A stretch of DNA of 20,000 nucleotides from an uncultured virus (IMG/VR IMGVR_UViG_3300049846_000440) (Duplodnaviria > Heunggongvirae > Uroviricota > Caudoviricetes): IMG/VR virus record IMGVR_UViG_3300049846_000440. One strand, written 5' to 3'. The notes beneath the pieces are model-generated. The model saw only the letters and a list, made by a program, of their open reading frames with translations, searched no databases and was not told the origin of the DNA. Below, one piece after another: positions 1-17,850 of this stretch. Numbering within the stretch: the stretch's first letter is position 1; each line of letters opens with the position of its first letter. A program made the position numbers and the translations under genes.

Positions 1-3000
1 AGACGAGGCTCAGTACGACTCCAACAGCTTCAGTGCCTTGACCCCATCTGAGCAGGCTCTGAAGTTTGAAGGCGTTGTAAACAAGGCCAAGGTGAGCGGG
101 ATTATCCCAAGTATCACGGAACTGGCCGCTACACTAAAAGCCAATAAGGTTGTAATCAAAAAGATATACGCAGACCTAAAGGCTGAGTACGAGCGGCAGT
201 ATCCGCCTGCTCCGATTCCTGAAGGACAGAAGGTTACACAAAAGCAGTTCCAGAACAATGGGTTTACCCGAATCAAAATGATCGGGGAAGAACCGTACTT
301 CGACAACACGGTCACCTCTGCGGCGAAAGCGATTGACCTCGGGTTGGAACTGACGGTCCCGCTCGGGGTTACTCCTCATCCGAACATCATAATCGACAAG
401 GACCGTAACGTAGTCCGGGTGTTTCATCCAACGTACGGATCGATTCGGCAACCGGGGGATTATGCGAAGGCGAGGGCAAATGATCCGGCGGTAATCCGCG
501 AAACCCTCAGACGAGAAGACGCTCGTTTGGAAGCCACGCACGAAGCCTATTTCAAGGACACCGTCAAAAACGAAATCGTACCAAGGTTTGCCGAACTGTC
601 CGACGAGGCGAAGATCGTTATTTACTCCAGCATAAAACAGGCGGACGGAAAAGTATTGGCTAACCGTAAAGCCAAACTGGAAAAACAAATTGCGAAGCTG
701 ACTACGCAATTGGAATCCCCGTTTTCTGCGTTGGAAGCGGACGCCCTCAACGAACAGTTGAACGCAGCAAAGGCTCAACTCAGCTCGCTGGAGGATCTTA
801 TTCAACGGGATATCTTCAACGCCCCAGAGTTGTTGAACTACGTCGATCCAGACACTCTGTACGATACCCTGACGAATCCCGCGTTGCAGAAGAAACAACT
901 CCCAGCCGAGGACATCGCCAAGATTCGGGACATCGCAAAGGTTTTCGCGGAGCGCACAGAGTTGATCGAAGAAGGATTGTTCCCCACGATCAACTCCAAC
1001 CTCAACTCCAAGGTGCAGCAGTTCTTGCAAGAGCAGTTCCGCAAGGAAGGCAAGAGCAACACCGTTGGTATCGTGGTCAGCATCGGGGATCTCACTGATC
1101 CAAACCATGTTCTTCTAAGTCGCACCATCGAATCCTTTTTCGGAAGTCCGGGAGCGTATAAAGTTCCGGCACCTGAAGGGGATATCCTTGTCAACGTGCG
1201 GGATTTGGAAACGGCACGGAACAGGTGGCTCGACTATTTGACTTCTGTTTCCAACGAGCTTCTTCAAAAGCGGCCTGAGATCCAGACATGGAACTCGTTT
1301 CTCAAATCTGCCGAAGGTAAACGCAACGCATTGGTAAAGCAGTTGTTTGAAAAAGCGCAGGTTGCGAAACAAGACCTGCTGATCGGTGCGGCCTACATGA
1401 ACACCGATTTCCTTCTGACGGTGTACCCAAATGTAAACCGGGATACCACATTGGACATCGTATCGGACAAACTCCGCAAATCCCTGCGCGAGTACCAACC
1501 TGCGTCCGCTTCCAGTGTGATGCGGTACGGGTCGTTCAAGATGGCGATGAAAGCCGTCACGGATATTCAACGGTCCAAACTAGGACGGATGCAAGAATCC
1601 GCTTTGTCCTTGGAGTCGTTGGAAGAAACGGGGGATGCGCTGTTGGTCGAAGGGATTCGGAATGGAAGCATAAAAGCGACCTCTACGACGAAGTCTTTAA
1701 GGGGCGCAATGGATGCGTTCATAGACGACACGCTCAAGACGACCAAGGTGTCCGTGCGTAAAGGTAAAGTAATACTGGATGCGAATAGCCCCATCGATCT
1801 TTGGGATGTGGTTAATGCTACATCCGTAAACATTCGGGAAGATGTAACCGTTTCCAAAGAAGAATACGGCATACTCAAACGGTTCGCCTTGAACGCGAAA
1901 CGCACCGTTGAAAAAGACCTCGCAACCCGCGCAGCGGCGGCACCTATTTTGCGCGAACAGAATGAGGCTTCCTTGTTCTTTGTTTTAGAGGAAGGGTACA
2001 AAGACACGCCTTCAATTGATCTTCCGAAAACCGAGTCGGGGGACGTTAAACCGTTTGAAAGTTTGACGTTCGCGGAATTGGCGAAGCTCAGTCTGAAGTA
2101 TAAGTACTCCAAGACCAAGGTCACCAACGTGATCCGCAGAGCAGTGGATCGTTCGATCTTGGAAGCCAAGGCAGCGGAACTCGGTGTTCGTGGGTTGCTC
2201 CAATACGGAACCCCGATTGCAGGGATTCAGGCTTACTACGATCCGTCTTCGGACGCCATCGTACTGAACACCGAGAACATTGACGGGACACAGATGGCGA
2301 TCCGCAAGCTCTACCATGAGTTGACGGAGCGGAACTTGGTTTACCTCAACGCTACAAAAGCAGGTAAGGCAGAACTCCAGACGATCTTCAACGGGGCGAA
2401 GAACGAACTGATGGCGTCGATCCCTGTAGTCCTGAAAGAATCAGGGTATGCAAACGTGCAGGAACTGATGGACGACTATGGGTTCGCCACGGAGGAAGAA
2501 CTCCTTGGTGAGCTTACTGCTCGGTACGCGGAACGTATCGCTGACAAGCCGAAGCCTTCTTGGTGGCAGACGCTGATGGCGAAGCTGCGGCTGTGGATGT
2601 CCAAACACTTCGGCTCCCACATCTCTGGGGAAACCTTGGAACACTGGCTTGCCGGAAACATCAAACGGTTCGCCGCTTCCAGCCCTAGCGCGGAGGTTCG
2701 TGAAGGAACCCTCTCCGAAAAACTCCAGCGTATTGACGAACGGTTTAAGCAAGTGGTCGATGCAGGCAATCAGGATATGCAGCGGATCATGGTGGACGCA
2801 GCGGCCAATACCGCTGGTCTGGTTGGTCCCCTCTGGCATTCTGGTACCTACGATCCTGCTTCTGGTGAAGCTCTCACCAAACCTTTGCACCTCGGCACCA
2901 GACAGGCTGCGGCAGAACGCAGCGTGGGCAAACCCGCCGACGACGAGATCGCTTTGGTGCAGGCGTACCAGACGGAAGACAACGAGTGGCACTGGGACGA

Positions 3001-6000
3001 TGGCCGGGGGACTACGTCCGAAAGCCTCGACGAAGGCGGATATGCAACGGAAGAGGAAGCCCTAGCCAGCGGAAGGAACTTCGTCTACAACGATCTTAAT
3101 TTTGACGAACTGTACAACGACGACACGAACATCAGTCGGTTGTTCATCGACGCCAAAAAAGTAAAGCGGGTTGAAGATGTAGGCGGAGCGAACGGCGAAT
3201 GGGATGCGGAGATCGAGAAGGCGAAGCAGGAAGGTTATGATGCCATCTCGTACATCAACCGCTACGAAGATCGCGGATCGGTTTCGTACCTCGTGTGGGA
3301 TACCCCGCAGGTCAGGAACGGGGAGCTTGTTACTTACGACGATGCCGGGAACCTGATCCCGTTGTCCGCACGGTTCAACCTCGACAATCCTTATCCTCGG
3401 TTCTCCAAGGAGAAGGCAGACGAGGAACGGAGCGAGTACGAGGAACGCTTGGATCAGCTCCAACTCAAGGTGGAGCAGGGCGAGATCAACTCTGCAATGG
3501 ATCGTTTTGAGGTCGCACCGGAAACTATGGTGTCCTCTGAGTTGAATAGCCCGAACCATTTCTGGACGGCAGCCCGGAGCGTGGCAATCACCTCGGACAA
3601 CGCATTCAGCCGAGAGATATATAACCTCATCAACAAGCTGAATATGCAGCAACTGCGTAAGGTCAACTTGCCTTCGCTGCAAATCCAACTGGAGAAAGGG
3701 TTGCCCACTGAAACCGTATTCGACCCAGCGCAGAACCTGATCCGTATCTCGGCGGATGCCGGGATGTCTTACGACGAGATGTCTGACGCAATCATGCGTT
3801 CAGGGTTACAGGCTGCCTTGTACAACGCGGCAAGCAATGGGTTGCCTACCATCGCAGGCAAATCTGGTGGTTCCGATCAGCGTGTGACCGAGGCGGTGCA
3901 GAAGCTGACGAGGGCGTTGAAGGCTTCGGGCAGCGGGTTGTCGTTGCAGGATTTCGCGTTACAGGCGTTCGATCCGGCATTCATTGACCGGATGCACATG
4001 ACCCACCCTCCCGGTAATCCTAGCGAGAACGTGGGCCGGATGATCATGGACTCGCTGTACACTTTGCTGGGGGTTGACCCAGCCAAAGGAACCGCCGAGG
4101 AAGTGGCGCGTTTGATGGGGTCTTCGGCAGAAGCTCAGAGGTTTGCCGAGTACAAGGTCAACGAAGCTGCGCGGTTCGGTGGAACCAAGCCGACGACCGC
4201 AGCCAAGTCGATTCTAGGCAATACCCCAGAAGTGGACGCGGCGTTGAAAGGCTCGACGTACTTCAACGAGTACGAGAAGGAGAACGTCGATAACGCCAAC
4301 GCATGGGTCGCCAACTTCAACGGGGATCTCGACGGAGCGTGGTTGGCATTGAAGTCCAACTCGACGGAGGCGAACAAGCTAACTACCCGTGAGCAAATCG
4401 TAGCCTACGCAATCGTTGCGCAGAAGTTCGCGGACCTGTCCGCCATCGCGAAGAAGAACAACGAGCCGTACGCCGCGCAGGATCTCATGCGCCAGTCTAT
4501 TGCAGTACGGCGTGACTTGGAAACCATCGGTAGCGCGGCGGGGCAGGAACTTCAGATCTTCGCCACACTCAAGCGGATGTTCAACGGAAGCTACATCCGA
4601 GCTGCAATCATTGACCCCATCGTGCAAACGGTAGGCAAGGCGGTGGGAGGCGAAGTGGTCGTGAAAGGTATCGAGGCGGCCCGTGCAACTGTATCCGAAG
4701 CAGCGGCGACTTCTACCGCAGCCAAAACTCAGCAGCTCATCAAGGCAATCGCTGGCGGAAAGGTGGATCAGAACACAGATCAATTGGTGTTCGACTTCTT
4801 CAACGCCGTGTACGACCCAACCAAGCTGAACGACAAGCTGATCGGGGAGATCGCCAAACGGTTGGTGGACTCCACCATTACTCGTTTGACTGGTGGCGTT
4901 GCCAAACCCCAAGTCGATTCCCTTCGGCAGAACCTGTACAAGTCGGTGGCGCAGCAGTTCAACGCTTTGATTTCGGTCGAACGTGCGAAGGTAGACCCGA
5001 ACTTGGAATCGATCTTGGTCGATAATCTGGATCTGGCGGAACGCTCATTTGAGGCGGCAAAGGAACAGTTGCTGGCGAGCAAGACGTTGACTCCTGAACA
5101 GGCGGCCTCGGTGCAAGCAGCGAAGTTTAGTTCGTTCGATTACAACAAGACACAGAAGATCCTGAAGAAGCATCTTGATATTGCCAAGCTGGTGCGGTCT
5201 TCGCTGGCGAACCAGAACGCTACGCTCGGCAGCCTGATCACGGAGTTGATCAATAAGGCGGGACTCAGTAAGGCAACCGCTGCGGAAGTGGCGAACGCTT
5301 TGACTGCTGTCTACAACGTCGAGGCTAAGAAGGAAGCTCGGAAACAGATCGACCGCATCGTCAACGCTCAACCGAATACGGCGAAGGTTAAGATCACCGA
5401 TTTCGAGAAGCTCGTTCAGTTCTTCAACATCGGCGCGTTCGATACCGAGGAGTATTGGAACGCAGTGGCGAAGCAGAATCCGAAGTTGAATCTTCCCACC
5501 TACGATCCCGCGTTCGTCAAGCAGTTGATGGAAGACGCGGACGCGGTGGCCGCGATGCCGGATAGCTTGGTCAAGCAGGAGCGCATCGTGAAGCTGATGA
5601 CCCGCGTGGCGGAGATGCATTCCAAGAACCTGAAAGGGTTCAAACAGAAGATCGCTTACTGGGGTGGTAACGTACTTCCCTCCGTTTGGACTGCGGGTAT
5701 TCTGTCTGGGGTGCCAACCCAGATGGTCAACTTGGTGGCTACTAAGTTGAACGTACTCCTACAATCAGGGTTTCAGGCTCTGGGCTACGGCTACGCTACC
5801 TACAAACAAACGGGCGATGTGTCGAAGGCGTTGGGGTATTTCAAGGACGTGATCGCTTCGTACCAGACTCTTGCGTCAGTGTTGGACAAAACCAATTCAC
5901 TGAACGTGGTGAGTAGGCAAGCGTTGGAGGTAGGGAAGAACCGCTTCGCCATGATGACGGGGCAACCGCTGAGTGTGTTGGAATCTTTGAAGTCCCCCAT

Positions 6001-7576
6001 CCTTCAAGGGCACAAGTGGGTCGGGCGTTTCATGTCTTCTGCGGATGCATTCAATACCCAGCTTGCCTACGAGATCAACCAGCGGTTGGCGTTCCGGTAT
6101 GCCAGCATTCAAGATCCTAGCCTATTAAAGGAAGGGCTTGCTTCCTTTAATCCGAACGCCGCTACCCAAGGGGCTATCGAAGCCCAGTTGAATTCGGAAG
6201 GATTGAAGGGGCGCGATAGGGATCTTCGTAGGGTAGAACTCACAGAGCAGTACCGCAAAGAGTTGGTGAACGACGAACAGTTCCTCACCAACACATTGTC
6301 CACGTCAATGGAGTGGACCATGAACAGCCAACCGAAAGGGTTCATCGGTCTCATATTCGCTGGCACTGCGGAGTTCTTGAGGAAGCAAACGGGAGGAGCA
6401 TCGCAGATGTTGCTCCCGTTTATGACCACTGTATCGAACCTCACAAACTCCTTATTGGATTTCACGCCAGTGGGTATTGCCAGAGCATTGGGGTTCCGCG
6501 CTTCCCGTATGCTTGAAGGGCGATACAAAGCGGAGACGCCAGCGGTAGGTACCCCAGAGTACCACGCCCTGTGGGCGAGGGCTATTGTGGGGAATGCTGC
6601 GCTGATGTTATTGGGATCGTTGGCGGCGATGTTCTTCGACGATGAGAAGAAAGGGAAGACCCCGTACTTCGCGATCTACGGGGCTGGACCAACAAATCCA
6701 AACGATCGCAAGCAATGGGAAGCCGCAGGTTGGTTGCCCTTCAGCGTTCGCGTAGGCGACCTGTCGATACCTTATCGGGATATGCCGGGGTTCAGTCTAG
6801 TTCTTGGGGCCTTAGGGAGTATCTTCGACACGGCGCGGTTCACACGAAACCCGGATAAGAAGACAGCAGCAGAGATGTCCATGTTCATGGCACTTGGAGT
6901 AGTCTCTACTCTGTTTGAGAAGAACCTATTGTCCGGTGTGTCCAACCTGTTTGAGGTGATCAGCAACCCGGATGCGCGAGGACTCGCCGCATTCCAAAAC
7001 ATGGCTGGATCATGGGTCGGTGGGGTTACCAATCCGCGTCTGGTCGATTACTTCACAAGCCTGCTGTTCCGCCGGGACGAGAATAACGACCTGATGAAGA
7101 TGGATCGTTCTACAGCAGGGTCGTGGTTTGCTTCGGTTGTCCCGGTAGTTGGTCCCCTGATCAACAACAAACCCGCACTGAATGTGTTGGGCGACCCTAT
7201 TACGGAGGCAAAACTGGAGCCGATCACTCGTCGATTTGTGGACATCTTCGGAGATCCGCATCCGATAATTGCCCCTCTGGTCAGGGCTGGGATGACCATC
7301 CCCGCTCCGTCTAAGTCAACCCAGTTCGCAGTGAACGGGCAGAAGTACACGATGTCAGATTCAGAGAACGCTTACCGCAGGTTCGTCGAACTGCGTGGGG
7401 ATCGGCTCAAGCAAGTGCTGACTCCTGCTGTTATTGAAAACCTTGTACGTATTGCCCAACAGTCTGGAGTGGACAAGGCTCAGAAGAAACTGGGAGATAT
7501 AACAGAGAACTGTAGGGATTCCGCAGTTCTCCGGCTACGGCAGGAGATTGCTTCCAACAAGCTATCACTGAAGTAG
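1..7576 (+). CDS. Giant phage polyvalent / internal virion (ejected) protein, 5'-truncated, >2500 aa; contains zincin-like, ART-like and C-terminal ejection-protein-like regions
   Basis: The frame is open from position 2 to TAG at 7574-7576, so the true start lies outside the window. Zincin-like segment YYDPSSDAIVL..LYHELTE..EEELLGE at ~2230-2540. ART-PolyVal-like segment WHSGT..LHLGT..A..GYDAISY.N..ED.GS.SY.V....QV at ~2830-3320, followed by VTYDDAGNLIPLSARFN. The C-terminal GAGP..RKQWEAAGWLPFSVRVGD motif with hydrophobic helices is typical of large phage internal proteins. Confidence 0.8.
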   Translation, partial: DEAQYDSNSFSALTPSEQALKFEGVVNKAKVSGIIPSITELAATLKANKVVIKKIYADLKAEYERQYPPAPIPEGQKVTQKQFQNNGFTRIKMIGEEPYFDNTVTSAAKAIDLGLELTVPLGVTPHPNIIIDKDRNVVRVFHPTYGSIRQPGDYAKARANDPAVIRETLRREDARLEATHEAYFKDTVKNEIVPRFAELSDEAKIVIYSSIKQADGKVLANRKAKLEKQIAKLTTQLESPFSALEADALNEQLNAAKAQLSSLEDLIQRDIFNAPELLNYVDPDTLYDTLTNPALQKKQLPAEDIAKIRDIAKVFAERTELIEEGLFPTINSNLNSKVQQFLQEQFRKEGKSNTVGIVVSIGDLTDPNHVLLSRTIESFFGSPGAYKVPAPEGDILVNVRDLETARNRWLDYLTSVSNELLQKRPEIQTWNSFLKSAEGKRNALVKQLFEKAQVAKQDLLIGAAYMNTDFLLTVYPNVNRDTTLDIVSDKLRKSLREYQPASASSVMRYGSFKMAMKAVTDIQRSKLGRMQESALSLESLEETGDALLVEGIRNGSIKATSTTKSLRGAMDAFIDDTLKTTKVSVRKGKVILDANSPIDLWDVVNATSVNIREDVTVSKEEYGILKRFALNAKRTVEKDLATRAAAAPILREQNEASLFFVLEEGYKDTPSIDLPKTESGDVKPFESLTFAELAKLSLKYKYSKTKVTNVIRRAVDRSILEAKAAELGVRGLLQYGTPIAGIQAYYDPSSDAIVLNTENIDGTQMAIRKLYHELTERNLVYLNATKAGKAELQTIFNGAKNELMASIPVVLKESGYANVQELMDDYGFATEEELLGELTARYAERIADKPKPSWWQTLMAKLRLWMSKHFGSHISGETLEHWLAGNIKRFAASSPSAEVREGTLSEKLQRIDERFKQVVDAGNQDMQRIMVDAAANTAGLVGPLWHSGTYDPASGEALTKPLHLGTRQAAAERSVGKPADDEIALVQAYQTEDNEWHWDDGRGTTSESLDEGGYATEEEALASGRNFVYNDLNFDELYNDDTNISRLFIDAKKVKRVEDVGGANGEWDAEIEKAKQEGYDAISYINRYEDRGSVSYLVWDTPQVRNGELVTYDDAGNLIPLSARFNLDNPYPRFSKEKADEERSEYEERLDQLQLKVEQGEINSAMDRFEVAPETMVSSELNSPNHFWTAARSVAITSDNAFSREIYNLINKLNMQQLRKVNLPSLQIQLEKGLPTETVFDPAQNLIRISADAGMSYDEMSDAIMRSGLQAALYNAASNGLPTIAGKSGGSDQRVTEAVQKLTRALKASGSGLSLQDFALQAFDPAFIDRMHMTHPPGNPSENVGRMIMDSLYTLLGVDPAKGTAEEVARLMGSSAEAQRFAEYKVNEAARFGGTKPTTAAKSILGNTPEVDAALKGSTYFNEYEKENVDNANAWVANFNGDLDGAWLALKSNSTEANKLTTREQIVAYAIVAQKFADLSAIAKKNNEPYAAQDLMRQSIAVRRDLETIGSAAGQELQIFATLKRMFNGSYIRAAIIDPIVQTVGKAVGGEVVVKGIEAARATVSEAAATSTAAKTQQLIKAIAGGKVDQNTDQLVFDFFNAVYDPTKLNDKLIGEIAKRLVDSTITRLTGGVAKPQVDSLRQNLYKSVAQQFNALISVERAKVDPNLESILVDNLDLAERSFEAAKEQLLASKTLTPEQAASVQAAKFSSFDYNKTQKILKKHLDIAKLVRSSLANQNATLGSLITELINKAGLSKATAAEVANALTAVYNVEAKKEARKQIDRIVNAQPNTAKVKITDFEKLVQFFNIGAFDTEEYWNAVAKQNPKLNLPTYDPAFVKQLMEDADAVAAMPDSLVKQERIVKLMTRVAEMHSKNLKGFKQKIAYWGGNVLPSVWTAGILSGVPTQMVNLVATKLNVLLQSGFQALGYGYATYKQTGDVSKALGYFKDVIASYQTLASVLDKTNSLNVVSRQALEVGKNRFAMMTGQPLSVLESLKSPILQGHKWVGRFMSSADAFNTQLAYEINQRLAFRYASIQDPSLLKEGLASFNPNAATQGAIEAQLNSEGLKGRDRDLRRVELTEQYRKELVNDEQFLTNTLSTSMEWTMNSQPKGFIGLIFAGTAEFLRKQTGGASQMLLPFMTTVSNLTNSLLDFTPVGIARALGFRASRMLEGRYKAETPAVGTPEYHALWARAIVGNAALMLLGSLAAMFFDDEKKGKTPYFAIYGAGPTNPNDRKQWEAAGWLPFSVRVGDLSIPYRDMPGFSLVLGALGSIFDTARFTRNPDKKTAAEMSMFMALGVVSTLFEKNLLSGVSNLFEVISNPDARGLAAFQNMAGSWVGGVTNPRLVDYFTSLLFRRDENNDLMKMDRSTAGSWFASVVPVVGPLINNKPALNVLGDPITEAKLEPITRRFVDIFGDPHPIIAPLVRAGMTIPAPSKSTQFAVNGQKYTMSDSENAYRRFVELRGDRLKQVLTPAVIENLVRIAQQSGVDKAQKKLGDITENCRDSAVLRLRQEIASNKLSLK

Positions 7577-7690: not shown

Positions 7691-8296
7691 ATGTTTGTAA
7701 ATAAAACTGACGCTACCCCTAACGGGGGTTGGAGATATACCCATCCCGTCACCGGGATGAAGTTCGGATCTATCGTTTACGGGGTTCTTTTGACATTGGT
7801 TCAGAAGCATTGCAAGGCGAACAATCTTCCATTCGATCTAGCTACATTTGAAGACGAGCTTTGTAAACAAGCGCACAACGGGGGCAACTGCGCGGAGGGT
7901 ACCAAGGAGTATCCGGTTCAGCCGAAGCGCACGACCATTGACGAAGCGGCGGGCTTCATCTCAGTCGTAAAGGAATGGATGAAGGACAGAGACTTCGTAC
8001 CTCAGGAGGAAGCAGAACGCCGCGCTGAGATCTGCGCTGCCTGCCCAGAGAACCAACAGATTGCGGGTTGCTCTGCTTGCCGTAACCTAGTTGGTAGGCT
8101 CACCCAATTGCTTGGGCAGCGTAGGACGAAGCGGGATTCAGAGTTACAGGGATGCAGGGTCTGTGGTTGCTCCAATGTGGCGCAGGTCCACGTTCCCTTG
8201 GACGCCTTGGCAAAGGGAATCAAACCGGACATGGTGTTCCCCGATCATTGCTGGAAGAAGGAAGCATATGCCCTACTCAAAACCGAAACTACGTGA
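7691..8296 (+). CDS. Cys-rich hypothetical phage protein (putative metal-binding), 201 aa
   Basis: ATG-started ORF co-oriented with the giant gene. Motifs CAACP, CSAC, CRVCGC and a terminal PDHCWK. Confidence 0.75.
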   Translation: MFVNKTDATPNGGWRYTHPVTGMKFGSIVYGVLLTLVQKHCKANNLPFDLATFEDELCKQAHNGGNCAEGTKEYPVQPKRTTIDEAAGFISVVKEWMKDRDFVPQEEAERRAEICAACPENQQIAGCSACRNLVGRLTQLLGQRRTKRDSELQGCRVCGCSNVAQVHVPLDALAKGIKPDMVFPDHCWKKEAYALLKTETT

Positions 8297-11302: not shown

Positions 11303-12637
11303 TTACCGTTTGACCTTGACCACGGTTCCGAACGTGGGCTTGAATTTGCAGTTCCCCCACTGAACCCAGACAGTTGGGATGCCGGGATCGGAAGGAGGAA
11401 ACACCCCGTCCAAGTCGGTCAGGTACACGATCACCTTGGCATCTGGTACACGGCCACGCACGTGATCGAACACGGGACGGAAGTCCGTGCCACCACCTCC
11501 GACAGGGTGGGCTTCCACGGTGTCGCCCTTCTCAAACACGTCCACTCGGTGGATGCGGTCGTCGCAGTAGATGACGTGCAGGCGTTGAGGTTGCAGGGTT
11601 TCCATGCACTCCGCAGCTTCGACCATGAACTCCTTGAGAAGCCTATCGTCAACGGAACCTGAGGTATCGATGGCGAAGACGATATCCCCAGCGGCATCCT
11701 CAGAATGCATGGACGGCAGATAGATCCCACTCCCGATGAACCTGCGGTCGGGCCGCTGCCAGTCGTAATCGTTGTTCGCAAGTTCGGTCAGGTACTGGCG
11801 AAGGAGTTCCTGCCAAGGGGTCTCGGCGGGTTTGACTGCCTCGGCTACAAACCGCTTGGCGAAGGCACTGCCCTTGCCGATCTGCTGCGCGGAGATTGCC
11901 GCCTGCACCACGGCATTGGCCCAGTCCTGCTCCTTGTTCCCGGACTGTTCCCCCGGCTTGGATTTGCGGGGAGGTTGGAAGTCTCCGGTCGGGCAGGAGT
12001 CGTTGGTCTTGGTGCGCTTAGGCTGCCCTTCCTTACCGTCTCCGTCCTTGTCGTCCTTACCGTCTCCGTCCTTGCCATCGTCCTTACCGTCTCCGCCTCC
12101 GTCCTTGTCGTCATTACTGTCCCCGTCCTTGTCGTCCTTACCGTCTCCGTCATTGCCACCACCCCCGCCCCTGTCCCCACCGCTGTCTCCGCCTTCGGGG
12201 GAAGGATTAGGACTGTCCTGCTGCTGCGCTTTGCGGGACATGAGTACACCGTAGACTTCTTCCAAGGACTTGGAAGCCAGCGCAGGATCGCGCACTGCCC
12301 CATCGGGCAAGGGGAACGGGTTGTCGTTCGCCGCGTTGTACTCGTCGATCATTCCGTTGACGATGATGTCAGCGGCTTCATTGGCAGTGGCATGGTCCAT
12401 CTCGGATACACGCCAGTTGTGTCCGAGGGCTGGGTGCATCACCTCATGTACGAGAACCGCACGGAGTTGCTCGTCAGGCAGACTGTCTGCGTACTGAGAG
12501 TTGACCCAGAGGGTCTCGCCATCGGTGGACAGGGTCTTGATGTTGGAGTTCTCCACCACGTTCATGCGCATGAGAAGCGCACCGAAGAACGGATGGTCGA
12601 GGACCACCCGGATTTTTTGTTTCTCTAGTCTGTTCAT
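11303..12637 (-). CDS. DUF2201-type putative metallopeptidase plus VWA domain protein, 444 aa
   Basis: N-terminal PFFG.L...TLSTDG...HEVMH (HExxH), an acidic Gly/Asp/Lys linker, then PWQELLR..W.RP.RR, MIDAS motif AIDTSGS, GGGGTDFRPVF and YLTDLDG. Start placed at ATG 12637 after the AAATCAGT leader. Confidence 0.9.
   Translation of the reverse strand: MNRLEKQKIRVVLDHPFFGALLMRMNVVENSNIKTLSTDGETLWVNSQYADSLPDEQLRAVLVHEVMHPALGHNWRVSEMDHATANEAADIIVNGMIDEYNAANDNPFPLPDGAVRDPALASKSLEEVYGVLMSRKAQQQDSPNPSPEGGDSGGDRGGGGGNDGDGKDDKDGDSNDDKDGGGDGKDDGKDGDGKDDKDGDGKEGQPKRTKTNDSCPTGDFQPPRKSKPGEQSGNKEQDWANAVVQAAISAQQIGKGSAFAKRFVAEAVKPAETPWQELLRQYLTELANNDYDWQRPDRRFIGSGIYLPSMHSEDAAGDIVFAIDTSGSVDDRLLKEFMVEAAECMETLQPQRLHVIYCDDRIHRVDVFEKGDTVEAHPVGGGGTDFRPVFDHVRGRVPDAKVIVYLTDLDGVFPPSDPGIPTVWVQWGNCKFKPTFGTVVKVKR
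12030..12195 (-). repeat. Low-complexity coding repeat (DGKDDKDG-like) in the VWA protein linker
   Basis: Repeated ccttaccgtctccgt / ccttgtcgt units visible on the + strand. Confidence 0.8.
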
Positions 12638-12658
12638 ACTGATTTGGTTTTGTGTTGG

Positions 12659-12711
12659 GCATCCCTGAAGGCTGCGCCCCCGGTTAGGAGGACGCAGGGA
12701 TTCAGGGATGC
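12659..12711 (-). repeat. Conserved intergenic hairpin, copy 1
   Basis: + strand gcatccctgaa-gg-ctgcg...cgcag-gga-ttcagggatgc: an 11-bp outer stem, a 2x3 internal loop and an inner stem. Confidence 0.85.
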
Positions 12712-12720
12712 AGGGTTTGG

Positions 12721-13722
12721 TTAGCCAATGATTACGCCCTGATTCTTCGCGAACCACTTGATGAAGTCGGTCGTCTGCTGGATCTCCTTGCACTTGGCAA
12801 GGCCCGCCTTGACGGCAAAGACTTCAAAGTCCTTGGGCATACGAGCGAGGTACCGGGAGATGATCCCGAAGGACTTCTCGTTCATCCGACTAATAAGTCC
12901 CGCCGCGACGGCGTACCGCTCGTCCGGCTTGGTCGGAACGTCTGCGCCATCAGGATCGAGCATGATAGCGTTGATCGAAGGTACGCGCCCGTGTACCTGA
13001 AGGAAGCCGTTAAACTCCAACGCCGCTGCCTGACCAACGATACCCGTCAGGATGGTAGCCGTATGCTCCGAGCCAGAGGAGGCGCGAATGTATTTGCTGA
13101 CCATCTCCCAAGACCGGGGTGAAGGGAAGGCGGAGTACCCATCCCACTTGGCACCATCGAACTGGGAAAGGAGTTCGGGGCGGAACTGGATGAAGGCGAC
13201 AACTCGGGGGTCAACCGCACCGGAGGCGAAAGCCCACTCGGTCCAGTCGTCAACGGACGGGGCGAGGGTGATCAGCACCAGACGGTTGATCACGGCACTG
13301 CTCATGCGTTCCACGTGCGCCTTGTCAACGGCACGGTTTCCGGTGACGGACAACAACGTACCTTCCGGCACCTTGTACTCTCCGATGCACCGTTCTAAGG
13401 TCAATTGCAACGCGGCAATCTGGACCGCACGAGGAGCGCACGGAAGTTCTTCCAACGTCCAGACCGAGGACTCGGTCGGGTACTCCGCCGGGATGGCGTA
13501 GTTCATCTCGCCCTTCTGGAGGTAGGGCAAGCCGCGCACGTCAGTCGGTGCGCTATAAGCAAGCCGCGTGTCCACGTGGGGCAGACCAACGGACTCCGCG
13601 TACTGGCGGAAGATCGAGGACTTGCCAATGCCCGGAGCGGACATGACGTAGGGTACCAACCCAGCCTTGTGGAAAGCGGGGAGTTCGGAGAGGAGTTGCT
13701 TAGGAGTGAGTGTGAGGTTCAT
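12721..13722 (-). CDS. MoxR-like AAA+ ATPase, 333 aa
   Basis: Walker A SAPGIGKS, DTRL...PTDVRGLP, Walker B variant WTLEEL, sensor-1 TGN, Arg-finger NRL and PSPRSWE. Adjacent to the VWA partner. Start placed at ATG 13722 after the AAATCAGT leader. Confidence 0.9.
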   Translation of the reverse strand: MNLTLTPKQLLSELPAFHKAGLVPYVMSAPGIGKSSIFRQYAESVGLPHVDTRLAYSAPTDVRGLPYLQKGEMNYAIPAEYPTESSVWTLEELPCAPRAVQIAALQLTLERCIGEYKVPEGTLLSVTGNRAVDKAHVERMSSAVINRLVLITLAPSVDDWTEWAFASGAVDPRVVAFIQFRPELLSQFDGAKWDGYSAFPSPRSWEMVSKYIRASSGSEHTATILTGIVGQAAALEFNGFLQVHGRVPSINAIMLDPDGADVPTKPDERYAVAAGLISRMNEKSFGIISRYLARMPKDFEVFAVKAGLAKCKEIQQTTDFIKWFAKNQGVIIG

Positions 13723-14829: not shown

Positions 14830-14891
14830 TGCACTCCTGAAGGCTGCACCCCTGAGTGTTTGATTCAGGGATGCAGGGATTCAGGCTTGCA
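14830..14891 (-). repeat. Conserved intergenic hairpin, copy 2
   Basis: + strand tgca-ct-cctgaa-gg-ctgcacccctga...tcagggatgcag-gga-ttcagg-ct-tgca. The upstream gene's stop codon (14881-14883) lies within the arm. Confidence 0.85.
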
Positions 14892-15417
14892 GGGTACGCT
14901 TGACGGACTCCACGAGGTCCATCGGCCCGTCCTGCCGTTGTAACGAGCGCAGGTTCACCTCTACGGGATCGTTGTCGAGGAACGTATCGTCGAGGGGATC
15001 TTCCCCTGTCCTTACGACGTGGATTGAGTAGAGATACCCGTGTAGGATTGAGTAGTAGCAATGGTGCATGGCATTCCAGAACTGGAATTCGTCCAAGTCG
15101 CGCTCAGACAACGGTTCCCCTTGCTTGCGCTCAATCCGGCAATTCGAATCCCAATTACAATCCGCATCTACTGCCATAAACTCGACCCACTCGACTCCAT
15201 CCGCATCCCTTCCCATATTAAGTGAGTGTGCCTTCTTATACCACTCGCCACTATCATCGTAGTACACCCAGTCCCCGGCCTCAGACGCATCCCATTTGAA
15301 CTTCCCTTCTGGCGAATGTTCAAACAGTTCCTCCCACGTTCCGGAGAACTTAGCAGGGTTCTGTTCGATCATTCGAATGGCGTTTCTAACTTCTGATTCT
15401 AGTTTGTTTAGGTTCAT
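14881..15417 (-). CDS. Hypothetical acidic, Trp-rich protein, 178 aa
   Basis: ATG start after an AAACCAACAAACCAAC leader; stops inside hairpin copy 2. Confidence 0.75.
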   Translation of the reverse strand: MNLNKLESEVRNAIRMIEQNPAKFSGTWEELFEHSPEGKFKWDASEAGDWVYYDDSGEWYKKAHSLNMGRDADGVEWVEFMAVDADCNWDSNCRIERKQGEPLSERDLDEFQFWNAMHHCYYSILHGYLYSIHVVRTGEDPLDDTFLDNDPVEVNLRSLQRQDGPMDLVESVKRTLQA

Positions 15418-15431
15418 GTTGGTTTGTTGGT

Positions 15432-15755
15432 TTATGCTGCGTAGATTGCGGTGGCCCAGCTAGTCAGGCCCACTGAGTAGAAGCCATGCTTCTCCAAGTG
15501 GGTGTTCATCTTCCCGAAGAGGGGACTCTCGTAGTTCCGATTGAATACCGGAGCAAGGTCGCCCCCGTCATGCACGACAATAAGGACTGCGCCGCCTCCA
15601 TGCGTCTCACCCATCGTCTTCCATTCCTCGGGGGTGTAGAATGCACGGCAACCTCCGGTGTTGGTGAGTTTGCGTTTACGGAGGAAGGACATGATCGCCT
15701 TGTGGGCTTTCTCCCCAGCCTCAAATTTGAACGGGTTTTCTAAGTCGATGTTCAT
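15432..15755 (-). CDS. Conserved hypothetical phage protein, 107 aa (TGGC.AFY.P.EW...LIVVHDGGD motif)
   Basis: ATG start with a leader identical to that of the 15417 gene; the motif resembles small uncharacterised phage early proteins. Confidence 0.75.
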   Translation of the reverse strand: MNIDLENPFKFEAGEKAHKAIMSFLRKRKLTNTGGCRAFYTPEEWKTMGETHGGGAVLIVVHDGGDLAPVFNRNYESPLFGKMNTHLEKHGFYSVGLTSWATAIYAA

Positions 15756-15762
15756 GTTGGTT

Positions 15763-15820
15763 TGTTGGTTTGTGTTGCTCAGTCTTAAATCATAATGAGA
15801 TAAGCACTGAAGACTGCACC
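15763..15820. repeat. 58-bp direct repeat, copy A (leader + 19-bp palindrome + hairpin arm)
   Basis: Matches 16244-16301 at 56 of 58 positions by manual comparison. Confidence 0.9.
15785..15803. promoter_or_regulatory. 19-bp quasi-palindromic operator/promoter motif, copy 1
   Basis: TTAAATCATAATGAGATAA. Confidence 0.75.
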
Positions 15821-15854
15821 CCCGATGATCAAGTCAGGGGTGCAGGGTTTCAGT
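15806..15854 (-). repeat. Conserved intergenic hairpin, copy 3
   Basis: + strand actgaa-ga-ctgcacccc...ggggtgcag-ggt-ttcagt. The upstream gene's stop (15850-15852) lies within the arm. Confidence 0.85.
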
Positions 15855-16242
15855 TCTCGGTGGACTTGGTTGGCAGCCCGCTCACGTCAGACGGTGAGGC
15901 GGAGTCCAGCCGAACGTCAACGCAGGGCAACCCAGCGGACTCTGCGTACTGGCGGACGATATAGGACTTGGATGGGGTTGGGGTAAACGTGGCGAGGAAG
16001 TAGTGTTGGTACTCGTCAGAGTTGAAGGCGGGGCCAATTAGTTCCTCGCAAAGAACCATGTTGGCGTACTGCCAAGCCGCGTACCAGTGAGCGGACTCCG
16101 CTTCGTATGAGTAGGGATAGGTCTTGCTACCTTTCGGTCCGGTCACCTTGATCCTCGCGCCCTTGGTGTCGGTAGCGGGGAGATACTTGGTCTTGATAAG
16201 TTGGCTAAGTTGCATTGGCGTTCTGATTTCTTCGGTGTTCAT
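15850..16242 (-). CDS. Small phage hypothetical protein (IKTKYLPAT.TKG.RIKV type) with a C-terminal AAA+-derived segment, 130 aa
   Basis: The N-terminal ~90 aa resemble a common small phage family. The C-terminal KSYIVRQYAESAGLPCVDVRLDSASPSDVSGLP matches the AAA+ ATPase at 22 of 33 residues. Confidence 0.75.
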   Translation of the reverse strand: MNTEEIRTPMQLSQLIKTKYLPATDTKGARIKVTGPKGSKTYPYSYEAESAHWYAAWQYANMVLCEELIGPAFNSDEYQHYFLATFTPTPSKSYIVRQYAESAGLPCVDVRLDSASPSDVSGLPTKSTEN

Positions 16243-16243
16243 A

Positions 16244-16301
16244 TGTTGGTTTGTGTTACTCAGTCTTAACTCATAATGAGATAAGCACTGAAGACTGCAC
16301 C
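16244..16301. repeat. 58-bp direct repeat, copy B
   Basis: Matches 15763-15820 with 2 mismatches; period 481 bp. Confidence 0.9.
16266..16284. promoter_or_regulatory. 19-bp quasi-palindromic motif, copy 2
   Basis: TTAACTCATAATGAGATAA. Confidence 0.75.
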
Positions 16302-16337
16302 TCTGAGAGATTCAGGGGTGCAGGGATTCAGGGCTTA
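16282..16337 (-). repeat. Conserved intergenic hairpin, copy 4
   Basis: + strand taagc-a-ctgaa-ga-ctgcacctctga...tcaggggtgcag-gga-ttcag-g-gctta. The GP88-like gene's stop (16335-16337) forms the base of the stem. Confidence 0.85.
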
Positions 16338-17210
16338 GTGAATGCCGATGGCAATGGGGATGCCGTCAAACCGCCGGGAACCGCAGGCGTGGTTCCCATT
16401 CGCGCAGAACCCGCACAAGCCGGGGCAGACGAACACTTTAGGGTAGCCCTGCGCGGCGGCGGATTCCCGCACCGCTTTCTGATAGGCGGCCCATGCTTCA
16501 GGGCTTTCCACTTCCCCGGTTTTCGCGTCCCGCTTCGGGGCTTTGACTGCGGCCTTGAAGGCGAGGAACTCCCCGCGAACGCATGGCAACGCCTTCATGC
16601 GGTCCCGCATCTCCTTCCCGTAGCGGGAACCCCCGGAGAGGTTGAGCGTATAGTTCGGGGCGAACTCCCCCTTGTAGGCAAGGAAGAGTTCCCAGCTTTT
16701 GCTGTACCCATAAACCCGCAAGTCGGGGCGATTGGCGCAGAGACGCTGCCAGTACTCCAGAACGGGGGCGGATTCAATATCCCCGTCAACGTACAGGCGA
16801 ACCGTTCCGGCGGGGAGAATATCCCACGCCTCCGCCACCTTCGCACGCCCCTTCTCCGAGCGGAGCATGAGCGTGTTTTGTAACTGGCGGAAGAAGGCGT
16901 CTGGATACCGGAACGCCCGGAGCGAATAGCACCAGACCTTGCAAGCCCCAGCTCCGGGGCAGGTCACCAAAGGCAGGGCAGAGAATGCCCAGAAGGGTAA
17001 CTTACCATTACCCTTCACAAAGACGGAGAAGCGGGGCTTCCCGTCCTGAAGGAAGGCAAGGAATTTCTGGGCGGCTTTCTTCCATCCCGGCTTTACTCCC
17101 CGCCGAAGGAAGAGGGCGGGGATTAATTCGCGGAGGTCTTCCGCGTTGGCTCCCATGACCCGGAGCAGGGTTTCCCGCTTCATGGCGGGGAGTTCTGATT
17201 TTGTTTTCAT
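16335..17210 (-). CDS. GP88-like protein (Cys-cluster, putative Fe-S-binding), 291 aa
   Basis: Motifs GNGKL..F..LP..TCPGAGACKVWCY, VRL...GD, Y.Y.K.W, N..L..S, VCP..CGFC....ACG and a terminal H. ATG 17210 overlaps the upstream TGA (ATGA). Confidence 0.75.
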   Translation of the reverse strand: MKTKSELPAMKRETLLRVMGANAEDLRELIPALFLRRGVKPGWKKAAQKFLAFLQDGKPRFSVFVKGNGKLPFWAFSALPLVTCPGAGACKVWCYSLRAFRYPDAFFRQLQNTLMLRSEKGRAKVAEAWDILPAGTVRLYVDGDIESAPVLEYWQRLCANRPDLRVYGYSKSWELFLAYKGEFAPNYTLNLSGGSRYGKEMRDRMKALPCVRGEFLAFKAAVKAPKRDAKTGEVESPEAWAAYQKAVRESAAAQGYPKVFVCPGLCGFCANGNHACGSRRFDGIPIAIGIH

Positions 17211-17407
17211 GATTTTACTATCCTCCGCATAAGGGCTAGATCTTCGGCGGAACGGTGGGCGAGGTAGCAATCGGTGCAACGGCCACCTTTGGCGTCAATG
17301 AAGATTGCCTTGGCGGTTTTCCAAGGCATGCCCCGCTCTTTGAGCGAGGGTGTGAACGTGTGGGGTTTTCCGCAATCGCGGCAGTGTTTGTCTGATTTTG
17401 TTTTCAT
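17207..17407 (-). CDS. Small Zn-finger-like protein (CxxC...CxxC), 66 aa
   Basis: CRDC and CTDC motifs; ATGA-coupled to the GP88-like gene. Confidence 0.7.
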   Translation of the reverse strand: MKTKSDKHCRDCGKPHTFTPSLKERGMPWKTAKAIFIDAKGGRCTDCYLAHRSAEDLALMRRIVKS

Positions 17408-17774: not shown

Positions 17775-17830
17775 CAGGCTTGCAGGCTTGCAGGCTTGCA
17801 GGCTTGCAGGCTTGCAGGCTTGCAGGCTTG
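17775..17830. repeat. Tandem octamer array (CAGGCTTG)x7
   Basis: Seven perfect units, preceded by degenerate units at ~17744-17774; ends 20 bp before ATG 17851. Confidence 0.95.
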
Positions 17831-17850
17831 CGTATATCGTTCACAGCGTT

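Follow-up and report, generated by a model that had tools for sequence, protein, structure and literature searches.

In-frame fusion of a core ATPase gene fragment to the end of a small gene in an uncultured N4-like freshwater phage

We analyzed a window of 20,000 nt, the whole stretch of DNA considered here, from a freshwater phage of about 67 kb that is a relative of coliphage N4. Among cultured phages, no DNA-level relative of the window was found. The window carries a 99-base copy of part of a core ATPase gene, which lies in frame at the 3' end of a small unrelated gene. The resident ATPase is of the gp24 type (MoxR-like) and is paired with the gene of its gp25 partner, a VWA/DUF2201 protein, at 11303-12793. 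An excerpt of PMC4193335 counts both gp24 and gp25 among the core genes of N4-like phages and gives their function as unknown. A tblastn search with the ATPase returned 825 phage records, and the matches listed were N4-like Schitoviridae of 70-77 kb. The two genes and their relevant parts are the following:

12721-13722, minus strand: gp24-type ATPase gene resident in the window, starting from the ATG at 13722 and encoding 333 aa (phrog_1297, E = 9.7e-79, positions 3-351)
13525-13623, minus strand: residues K34-P66 of the resident ATPase, with the helix after the P-loop, the next strand and the conserved P-T-D-x-x-G-L-P loop (aligned with 11 other gp24-type ATPases)
15850-16242, minus strand: open reading frame of the 130-aa chimeric gene, with N-domain, linker, ATPase-derived piece, tail and stop
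15991-16242, minus strand: residues 1-84, a complete small phage protein domain of the phrog_3199 family ending in ...HYFLA (E = 5.5e-10)
15970-15990, minus strand: 7-residue linker TFTPTPS upstream of the insert, the native C-terminal tail of the small gene by its homology to TFTPPTSKP followed by a stop
15871-15969, minus strand: ATPase-derived piece in codon register, K92-P124 (15872-15970 in the original prediction), matching at 74/99 nt and 22/33 aa
15853-15870, minus strand: 6-residue tail TKSTEN before the stop codon at 15850-15852, the same tail as in P0004, a protein of 97 aa

The N-terminal motif of phrog_3199 (T-K-Y-L-x-x-T-D-T-K-G-A-R-I-K) and the fold of this family are present in the window protein. 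Its length, however, is not that of a stand-alone member (about 80-110 residues), with 46 extra residues after ...YFLA. The original prediction had raised the possibility that homologs of the small gene end near YQHYFL and, indeed, 25 of 28 stop a few residues past the equivalent strand. The relatives in viral contigs all match residues 9-68 only (28/28, from 34 candidate stretches of which 28 were confirmed), and a close relative, P0003 (90 aa), has its stop six residues after YYLA. The CA-rich leader and the ATG context of the chimeric gene match those of neighbouring genes (repeat families D6 and D11). In BFVD, the fold of the N-domain matched uncharacterized phage proteins of 81-111 aa (E = 1e-4 to 8e-4), and Foldseek against the PDB gave no match at E = 0.001 or better. 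AlphaFold2 assigned a pLDDT of 72-91 to residues 11-60 and of 29-35 to residues 100-130, which predicts that the ATPase-derived piece is disordered and would have no fold of its own.

As originally described, positions 15872-15970 align without gaps to 13526-13624 at 74 of 99 bases (repeat family D4, 75%), and the peptides read in the minus-strand frame of the gene match the resident ATPase at 22 of 33 residues. The similarity of the flanking sequences along this diagonal is at chance level (22/72 for 15800-15871 and 21/70 for 15971-16040), and the linker has no similarity to the ATPase gene (7/20 bases). When L030, a contig of another metagenome, was compared to the window by BLASTN, the piece also paired with the ATPase gene (E = 8.9e-15 and 6.8e-10). 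In PHROG profiles, a match to the whole of phrog_1297 (about 330-350 residues) was not obtained, only residues 91-129 of the 130-aa protein falling on positions 37-75 of 356 (E = 5.6e-7). Residues 85-124 present 50% identity to N4 gp24. The nearest clusters in the ESM Atlas were short AAA-labelled viral proteins with scores of 0.75-0.81, which we treat as a lead only. Pfam yielded no match for the 130-aa protein, the resident ATPase or the giant open reading frame of the window, and the sequence comparison of the resident ATPase with solved structures gave insignificant P-loop matches only (E = 0.63 and above).

The piece starts at the Walker-A Lys-Ser, as had been proposed. Its other end had been placed 17 nt before a hairpin, a distance that is only approximate since the piece ends 25 nt before the first cassette stem (15845-15834); it lies 18 nt before the stop codon (15852-15850). 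The two copies differ at about 26 bases, corresponding to about 11.8 synonymous and 14.2 non-synonymous changes (Nei-Gojobori), and the frame is intact, which agrees with the synonymous differences first noticed. The extension is unable to act as an ATPase: it is homologous to family residues 34-66, that is 33 of about 333 residues, and has neither the glycine-rich part of the P-loop nor anything past the second strand. The Walker A loop G-x-x-G-x-G-K-S/T, whose context in the resident ATPase is GIGKS, is incomplete in the window piece, where the sequence P-T-P-S-K-S leaves Lys-Ser alone; P0004 presents Met-Ser at this position. The window piece retains 14 of 14 family-conserved positions. In the P-loop fold, the helix after the P-loop and the next strand are elements that we take to belong to the core and not to the surface.

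The junctions of the piece and the surrounding intergenic sequences contain the following features:

15964-15975, minus strand: upstream copy of a 12-nt direct repeat, CCATCCAAGTCC, whose final 6 nt coincide with the Lys-Ser codons of the ATPase
15862-15873, minus strand: downstream copy of the 12-nt direct repeat, CCAACCAAGTCC
15835-15877, no strand: patch divergent from L030 by difference counts, starting from the Gly-Leu-Pro codons that end the piece
15756-15849, minus strand: intergenic cassette after the gene, with a GC-rich 12-bp hairpin (15845-15814) and a second hairpin (15810-15779) around TTATCTCATTATGA
16243-16334, minus strand: another copy of this cassette, located upstream of the gene and sharing 90% identity over 71 nt with the downstream one (D6; fold z = -4.35)

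The two copies of the direct repeat are 102 nt apart and identical at 11 of 12 positions, whereas only 0.6% of 4000 same-strand segment pairs do as well. In addition, the target and the donor share microhomology at both junctions, AAGTCC on the left and CC on the right. Templated insertions, which arise by template switching or microhomology-mediated break-induced replication, consist of a short copy from elsewhere with microhomology at its junctions and a duplicated target. The locus presents all of these: a short copy from elsewhere, microhomology at both junctions and a target duplication that flanks the insert. It differs in that the case of the window is deduced from sequence comparison, with a duplication of 11/12 nt and a weakly supported empty-site allele. 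This allele (X5 record 11) lacks the piece and joins position 15980 to 15853 through 15 other bases, ending in ...FLATFTPPTSKP and a stop. It is a single contig of 79 nt with a depth of 2, and its tail, TFTPPTSKP, resembles the linker without being identical to it. This tail is the exact product of neither a simple insertion nor a simple deletion.

The comparison with L030, in which the same fusion is found and which is colinear with and 90-92% identical to the window, reveals a recombination breakpoint at the 3' edge of the piece. Eight differences were counted in the 365 nt from 16242 to 15878, followed by ten in the 25 nt from 15877 to 15853. Beyond 15835, L030 has an extra gene where the window has a cassette. 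The extra genes of L030 lie at 2098-2397 and 240-542, and the one at 2098-2397 has no counterpart in the window. The flanking direct repeat, the breakpoint at the edge of the piece and the piece-free allele support the initial idea that the fusion could be a product of recombination.

The fusion had been envisaged as possibly unique and decaying. This is refuted by the finding of six distinct alleles, all of them in frame, with no stop or frameshift. Four protein alleles (P0001, P0005, P0006 and P0007) were found on 8 contigs from JGI, ENA and NCBI sources; P0005 is identical to the window protein and occurs on 3 contigs, and P0001 is 95% identical to it and occurs on 2. The tail varies among carriers: TKSTEN in the window and P0004, TKTVEN in L030, and TSKP in P0006 and P0007. 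In P0004, an unrelated N-terminus of 59 residues precedes the piece and the identical tail GLPTKSTEN. That this N-terminus could be a decayed ATPase N-terminus found no support in BLASTP or in PHROG, where residues 60-96 only were matched. A metagenome scan yielded four loci, including an unrelated phage ATPase (L033) and two true ATPase genes (L031 and L032); the start codon of the ATPase is the same in L030, L031 and L032. Parts of the region occur in some 18 studies. In run X6, no contig covered 15710-15955, which proves nothing. These results indicate that the fusion is a real, inherited product of phage recombination whose readable state has been preserved. As the evidence stands, the locus is an ordinary product of phage mosaicism, and nothing shows that the ATPase-derived piece has a job of its own.

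The original prediction viewed the piece as captured from the ATPase of a related phage. The capture of an AAA-type ATPase piece and its in-frame fusion were confirmed, and the diverged donor is modestly supported, with no closer donor found. None of the 11 residue differences between the piece and the resident ATPase falls on the 14 family-conserved positions (Fisher p = 0.0004). The differences thus avoid conserved positions, as would be expected had they arisen inside a working ATPase. This modestly supports a diverged ATPase, rather than the resident gene of today, as the probable donor. None of 11 candidates was a closer donor when the tail was compared with longer proteins, and the only matches in a representative protein library were P0002, P0004 and two long proteins of repetitive sequence, the latter attributed to chance. 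A degenerate DNA pattern for RQYAES-x-GLPCV had no match in viral contigs and none in genome contigs. Gp66 of Erwinia phage Fifi011, annotated as a "putative ATPase" beside the gp24 homolog, proved to be Gam-like and unrelated.

The sequence features of the junctions suggest that the fusion probably arose by microhomology-mediated templated insertion and was retained as a tail that is tolerated or under mild constraint. In this reading, a stretch of about 93-102 bases, running in a gp24-type ATPase gene from the codons of the Walker-A Lys-Ser to those of the conserved Gly-Leu-Pro, would have been duplicated into the 3' tail of a small gene of the phrog_3199 family that was already complete. 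The event may have consisted of a template switch or a templated break repair, and the template was probably the ATPase gene of a co-infecting relative or an ATPase allele replaced in the meantime. The insertion would have taken place in a plastic region of an N4-like freshwater phage where repeated hairpin cassettes delimit the small genes. By chance, the insert would have been in frame, so that the small protein presumably gained a flexible C-terminal extension of about 45 residues. It would then have been inherited and moved between alleles by recombination while staying readable, a history that points to a tolerated or mildly constrained tail and not to a decaying scar. It had also been proposed that the piece serves as a homology patch. 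We found no support for this idea. The longest near-identical run shared with the ATPase gene is of about 22 nt, and a recombination event at this place would remove three genes as well as the start of a core gene.

Alternatively, a gene similar to P0003 with its own stop and a separate gene similar to P0004 could have been joined in frame by a deletion, the 3' end of the latter being all that was left of a second ATPase copy after its decay. The N-part of the window protein is identical to P0003 at 69 of 84 residues, and its piece and tail to P0004 at 29 of 39. Both proteins, one with its own stop (90 aa) and the other with the piece and the same tail (97 aa), come from ENA contigs, the longest of 13,576 nt, and they are possibly encoded on one contig. 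Moreover, the presence of the piece on the unrelated N-terminus of P0004 means that the insertion model needs a second rearrangement, whereas fusion by deletion does not. However, the N-part of P0004 has no similarity to the ATPase, and neither the flanking 12-nt repeat nor the homology of the linker to the tail of the piece-free allele is explained by a deletion. The contig of P0003 and P0004 was matched in none of the DNA collections searched, and the search of viral contigs with P0004 did not find its DNA. We consider this scenario unlikely.

Several observations bear on the readable state of the extension. Over codons 89-130, the window and L030 differ by 7 synonymous and 4 non-synonymous changes (omega = 0.18), values that come from very few changes and one DNA-level relative and ignore transition bias, with our binomial p at about 0.01-0.03. 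In the last 25 nt, there are 10 base differences and yet the peptide reads GLPTKSTEN in the window and GLPTKTVEN in L030. In the two most distant carriers, the identity of the piece (25/33 and 29/39) is near that of the N-domain (49/59 and 69/84). The differences among piece alleles are distributed nearly evenly, with 10 of 31 on ATPase-conserved positions, including the change of the Walker Lys to Met in P0004. Within the close group formed by the window protein, P0001, P0006 and P0007, a single residue of the piece differs, and these copies are therefore recent.

The piece could be a neutral scar, an unconstrained accident of recombination that is readable only through its youth. The recent copies of the close group fit such a view, as do the predicted disorder, the piece-free allele and a region that is full of insertions and deletions. 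It is nevertheless quite unlikely that the piece has been free of constraint: lineages whose N-domains are about 82-83% identical share a piece that is still 74-76% identical and in frame, the changes over codons 89-130 are more often synonymous than not, and the tail peptide is preserved where the underlying DNA has strongly diverged.

The latter two observations would also be expected of a functional module, in which a gp24-derived peptide of about 40 residues and the tail constitute a portable C-terminal tag mimicking part of the core ATPase. Such a module might attach small early proteins to the gp24/gp25 machine, act as a poison of the assembly of this machine or serve as a decoy for a host factor recognizing gp24. 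The identical GLPTKSTEN tail and the piece are indeed found on two unrelated N-parts (the window protein and P0004), and all 14 family-conserved residues are retained in the window piece. The excerpt of PMC4193335 that lists gp24 and gp25 as core genes of unknown function leaves room for such a role, and there is a proposed precedent. In an excerpt of PMC5871332, fragments of essential viral genes are fused to other proteins in Bodo saltans virus and a decoy role is proposed. The case of the window is similar, as part of an essential viral enzyme is joined in frame to a protein unrelated to it. Unlike what that excerpt describes, it is a single case, with no gene family and no binding domain such as ankyrin, and in both viruses the decoy role is a hypothesis. 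A functional module appears improbable to us, however, when one considers that the piece would correspond to elements of the P-loop-fold core, that AlphaFold2 predicts it to be disordered, that its alleles change on ATPase-conserved positions about as often as elsewhere and that a piece-free allele exists. Furthermore, none of the 466 cultured phage records carrying the ATPase region has a second copy of it. A broader version, in which a freshwater N4-like clade grafts the gp24-derived module on different small early proteins and thereby tethers them to the gp24/gp25 ATPase-VWA machine or lets them stand in for gp24 towards a host factor, is more doubtful still. That the tail is conserved in two gene contexts could nonetheless mean that a real function is underrated by the templated-insertion reading. 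If the tail were functional, it would offer a first approach to what the conserved gp24/gp25 pair does and a phage example of mimicry by gene fragments; the portable module, if real, would correspond in bacteriophages to the decoy fusions that have been proposed for giant viruses.

Although assemblers can be misled by repeats and several contigs break at 15980/15981, an assembly chimera or sequencing artefact is practically inconceivable and this concern of the original prediction is refuted: the junction at 15970/15971 occurs in L030, in the four protein alleles on 8 contigs and in bridging contigs of two further studies (two X5 contigs without differences and two X4 contigs), and the copies, being only 75% identical, are too diverged to collapse in assembly.

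Phage genomes are mosaic, and illegitimate or relaxed homologous recombination leaves chimeric open reading frames and gene fragments at the junctions. The locus resembles such chimeras in that a sharply bounded gene piece lies at a module boundary with short identity at its junctions, and relatives differ exactly there. It departs from them in that the donor belongs to a family represented in the same genome by a core gene, located 2.3 kb away, and in that the piece is in frame and present in several lineages and two carrier genes with signs of constraint. Excerpts of PMC2327257 and PMC3945230 concern temperate phages, whereas N4-like phages are lytic. The templated-insertion reading would make the locus a clean, datable example of phage genes gaining new ends, with the repeat, the likely empty-site allele and the breakpoint still visible in natural populations.

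In the surroundings of the chimeric gene, repeated stem-loop intergenic sequences lie on both sides of small genes, and the indels between close relatives are bounded by repeats, both in L030 and in an X4 contig that skips the 107-aa gene at 15412-15744 between D11 repeated leaders. These are features of the PeSL-type cassettes of T4-type phages, where repeated cassettes with promoter-like and stem-loop sequences delimit small genes whose function is unknown, and near-identical phages gain or lose genes at these cassettes, as do L030 and the X4 contig relative to the window. In its early region, the uncultured N4-like freshwater phage thereby shows the behaviour of the plastic, cassette-bounded regions described in T4-type phages. 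The window differs in the phage family and in the sequence of the cassette, whose role as promoter or terminator is putative here, and the ATPase piece lies inside a coding tail beside the cassette and not within it. The giant open reading frame of the window has three weak partial matches only, to proteins of phages of about 40 kb, and these do not show it to be an N4-type virion RNA polymerase. The cassette downstream of the chimeric gene (repeat families D5, D6 and D9) has a predicted DNA fold of -17 kcal/mol (z = -4.6), and the other three copies have fold z values of -0.24, -3.79 and -1.97. The cassette motif TTATCTCATTATGA occurs five times on the minus strand, against 0.01 occurrences expected.

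The stretch at 15872-15970 matches 13526-13624, within the resident ATPase gene, without gaps at 74/99 nucleotide positions, and the two peptides agree at 22/33 residues, as had been proposed in the original prediction. Both segments are on the minus strand, and each is in frame with its own gene. Identity falls abruptly on both flanks along the same diagonal (22/72 positions at 15800-15871 and 21/70 at 15971-16040), giving the piece a sharp edge on either side. A BLASTN comparison of the window with L030, a closely related metagenome contig, also paired the piece with the ATPase gene (E 8.9e-15 and 6.8e-10), and with PHROG profiles residues 91-129 of the 130-aa ORF matched the ATPase family phrog_1297 (E 5.6e-7) over positions 37-75 of its 356. 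The predicted distance of 17 nt from the end of the piece to the hairpin proved approximate: we measured 18 nt to the stop codon and 25 nt to the first stem. With 33 of ~333 residues and without the glycine-rich loop, the piece cannot be an ATPase. The two genes are:

12721..13722, minus strand: resident ATPase gene, 333 aa, matching phrog_1297 end to end
15850..16242, minus strand: 130-aa gene containing the piece

Residues 13-61 of the 130-aa protein match phrog_3199 (function unknown; E 5.5e-10), a family different from that of the piece. Of 34 candidate stretches in the viral-contig collection, 28 code for relatives of this carrier, each with a match limited to residues 9-68. The ORFs of 25 of these relatives stop a few residues past the final hydrophobic strand, which we aligned to HYFLA of the window protein; the remaining three comprise two 203-aa proteins that carry a C-terminal part of another kind and one with a different end. 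P0003, a 90-aa relative without the piece, is identical to the window protein at 69/84 positions and stops 6 residues past YYLA, so the expectation that carrier homologues end near YQHYFL was confirmed. In an AlphaFold2 model based on a 14-sequence alignment, pLDDT is 72-91 at residues 11-60, low at ~70-100 and 29-35 at residues 100-130, the region of the ATPase piece. Foldseek searches with this model found no match in PDB, and the BFVD matches were all uncharacterized phage proteins, 81-111 aa long. On this evidence, the carrier is complete before the piece. The gene reads as a complete small protein (residues 1-84), a linker (TFTPTPS), ATPase residues K92-P124, a tail (TKSTEN) and a stop codon.

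A 12-nt direct repeat flanks the piece (CCATCCAAGTCC at 15975-15964 and CCAACCAAGTCC at 15873-15862; 11/12 identical, 102 nt apart), and such a match was reached by just 0.6% of 4000 pairs of 33-nt control segments taken on the same strand. The final six nucleotides of the upstream copy double as the ATPase's Lys-Ser codons, such that target and donor share 6 nt at the left junction; CC is common to both at the right junction. The linker that precedes the piece has its homologue in the tail of a piece-less allele. Flanking repeat and microhomology form the pattern of a templated insertion, with a copying step that we infer. Copying would exit the target at the microhomology, ~93-99 nt of the ATPase gene would then be read as template, and copying would return a few bases upstream in the target, thereby duplicating it. 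The reading that we favor, and hold to be fairly probable, is a microhomology-mediated insertion in a plastic region bounded by cassettes, since kept as a C-terminal extension that is flexible and under mild constraint. Alternatively, a P0003-like gene might have been joined by deletion to a gene like that of P0004, a 97-aa protein with an unrelated 59-residue N-terminus, in which no ATPase similarity was found, ahead of the piece and a tail, GLPTKSTEN, identical to the window's. Such an origin fits the existence of both proteins but leaves the 12-nt flanking repeat unexplained, and we consider it unlikely. The probabilities that we attach to the different readings do not add up to one, since this alternative origin overlaps the others.

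Several alleles were found at the site. A 79-nt contig of depth 2 from X5, a sequencing run of another study, joins 15980 to 15853 via 15 other bases, and its gene ends in FLATFTPPTSKP and a stop codon, without the ATPase piece. Several contigs of X5 and of another such run, X6, break at 15981, as expected where alleles branch. The protein relatives P0006 and P0007 possess the piece and end in GLPTSKP, the tail of the piece-less allele, and P0002 has a different tail. Between the window and L030, we counted 8 differences in the 365 nt of 16242-15878 and 10 in the 25 nt of 15877-15853, a jump that places a recombination breakpoint exactly at the Gly-Leu-Pro codons ending the piece; past 15835, L030 has an extra gene and the window a cassette. 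Counting this one, two extra small genes of L030 (2098-2397 and 240-542; one matching phrog_4927 with E 1.6e-12, the other without a clear family) stand where the window has cassette sequence alone. One contig from a third run, X4, omits 333 nt (window 15412-15744), i.e., the entire 107-aa gene 15432..15755; this skip, bounded by two copies of the leader repeat GTTCATGTTGGTTTGTTGGTTT (family D11, 93% identical), is a natural deletion or insertion at the repeat. P0007 is nearly identical to the window protein except at residues 73-81, where it reads SSDGDTQYF, as in the more distant P0003, instead of NSDEYQHYF, which looks like a short recombination patch within the N-domain.

With 73-75/99 identical positions, the resident ATPase gene is a slightly better match to the piece than the ATPase gene of the relative L032 (70-71/99), and our donor searches found no ATPase closer to it than the resident one. 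Twelve gp24-type ATPases were aligned and conservation was scored on ten non-redundant sequences: 14 of the 33 piece positions proved conserved. Between the window piece and the resident ATPase there are 11 residue differences, all outside the conserved positions (Fisher one-sided p 0.0004); the P0002 piece differs from the resident ATPase at 9 positions, one conserved, and the P0004 piece at 12, four conserved, including the Walker Lys. Among these three alleles, differences are near-evenly spread (10/31 at conserved positions). On these sequence comparisons, most differences from the resident gene may be read as having arisen within a working ATPase, which would make the donor a diverged relative or a since-replaced allele; the proposed capture from a related phage thus gains modest support. 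After capture, the piece appears to have ceased evolving like an ATPase. This slightly disfavors, in its strict form, the idea that the piece is a portable functional module mimicking gp24, which we judge quite unlikely; for a decoy, as initially suggested, part of the published account of Bodo saltans virus (PMC5871332) offers a parallel.

None of the six alleles contains a stop or a frameshift. Between the window and L030, the changes in codons 89-130 are synonymous in 7 cases and non-synonymous in 4 (omega 0.18), and those in the 33 piece codons in 4 and 1, respectively. By hand count, 6/10 base changes in the diverged last ten codons are synonymous and the protein still reads GLPTK..EN. 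Binomial estimates against a 27% share of synonymous sites, which ignore transition bias, gave p ~0.01-0.03. For the two most distant carriers, identity is 25/33 and 29/39 in the piece and 49/59 and 69/84 in the N-domain. The sequences suggest some purifying selection on a translated tail, tempered by the few changes, the single DNA-level relative and the existence of a piece-less allele; a fully neutral scar seems quite improbable.

A word-indexed protein search yielded four relatives out of nine candidates, and a search with the tail only yielded three out of four. Cluster look-ups added P0005, which is identical to the window's protein and was found on a 66,883-nt contig, P0006 and P0007. 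The piece is present in six distinct alleles (the window's, shared with P0005, and those of P0001, P0006, P0007, P0002 and P0004), always in frame, and the same fusion occurs in L030, which runs colinear to the window (90-92% identity). Logan contigs from four other studies were compared with 15300-16500. Two X5 contigs with zero differences span 15779-15937 and 15920-16009 and two different X4 contigs span 15835-16003, so the junction 15970/15971 is bridged in two further studies. The six in-frame alleles, L030 and these bridging contigs show that the fusion is not unique and make an assembly chimera extremely improbable. The fusion is real and restricted to a small freshwater clade. Among cultured phages, 98 records match the 130-aa protein and none covers 80% of it; cultured-phage searches and a non-exhaustive search of the literature on N4-like gp24 found no published description of the fusion.

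The fusion, which we favor as an insertion, works like the chimeric ORFs of phage mosaicism, and the neighborhood of the 130-aa gene behaves like the PeSL cassettes known from T4-type phages (PMC2839356). Minus-strand small genes from ~19000 to 14800 are separated by a repeated cassette, composed of a GC-rich hairpin and then a second hairpin around TTATCTCAT(A/T)ATGA (5 minus-strand occurrences vs. 0.01 expected), and the 130-aa gene has a cassette on either side.

15779-15849, 16243-16334, ~17690, ~18285 and ~18990, minus strand: cassette copies, one before each of five genes
16335-17279, minus strand: gene upstream of the 130-aa gene, cysteine-motif-rich, matching Pfam GP88 (E 2.4e-17)

The motif sits in an imperfect hairpin with a 3-nt loop, preceded in two copies by a 12-bp GC-rich hairpin. 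The cassette is reminiscent of N4 early-gene hairpin promoters or of promoter-terminator cassettes. Arrays with an 8-nt period lie directly past minus-strand stop codons (17775-17831, 12690-12715, 14862-14894, 16309-16333 and 8134-8160), with CAGGCTTG repeated 7.1 times with zero mismatches and the related units GGATGCAG and GATTCAGG; in the 130-aa gene, the stop codon falls within unit one of such an array. The GP88-matching gene shares its start region with a 66-aa treble-clef-like zinc-finger ORF (17207..17407).

The resident ATPase matched 825 phage records by tblastn, all below 60% identity, and 23 of the 25 matches listed were phages of 70-77 kb. Of seven ATPase-bearing records inspected, five were 70-77 kb long and five were Schitoviridae, including N4 gp24. 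At the sensitivity of the search, no second N-terminal copy of the ATPase was found in 466 matching cultured-phage records (466 places). Two further features are:

11303..12793: gene after the ATPase gene, with DUF2201_N and VWA-like DUF2201
2-7576, plus strand: giant ORF, 2524 aa or longer, open at the start of the window

Since it follows the ATPase gene and has a VWA-like domain, the former was taken for the counterpart of N4 gp25. In PMC4193335 and PMC2784036, gp24, a putative AAA ATPase of unknown function, and gp25, with vWFA, are counted among the core genes of N4-like phages and among the middle transcripts of N4. The giant ORF matched no Pfam family and, by tblastn, gave three weak partial matches only, to hypothetical proteins of ~40-kb phages; in size and in its opposite orientation, it would be consistent with a candidate N4-like virion RNA polymerase. 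Two families of very short phage proteins, phrog_21479 (68 positions) and phrog_37661 (81 positions), align with the N-terminal region of gp24-type ATPases (E 3.9e-14 for the short-family match to the resident gene), and may represent recurring short ATPase-start ORFs in other phages or split or truncated gene calls. Within the DUF2201 gene, 12030-12156 consists of imperfect 24-nt tandem repeats that code for an acidic stretch rich in Gly, Asp and Lys; it separates the metallopeptidase-like domain from the VWA-like one, and L032 has a different, Ser/Asp/Gly-rich stretch in the same place.
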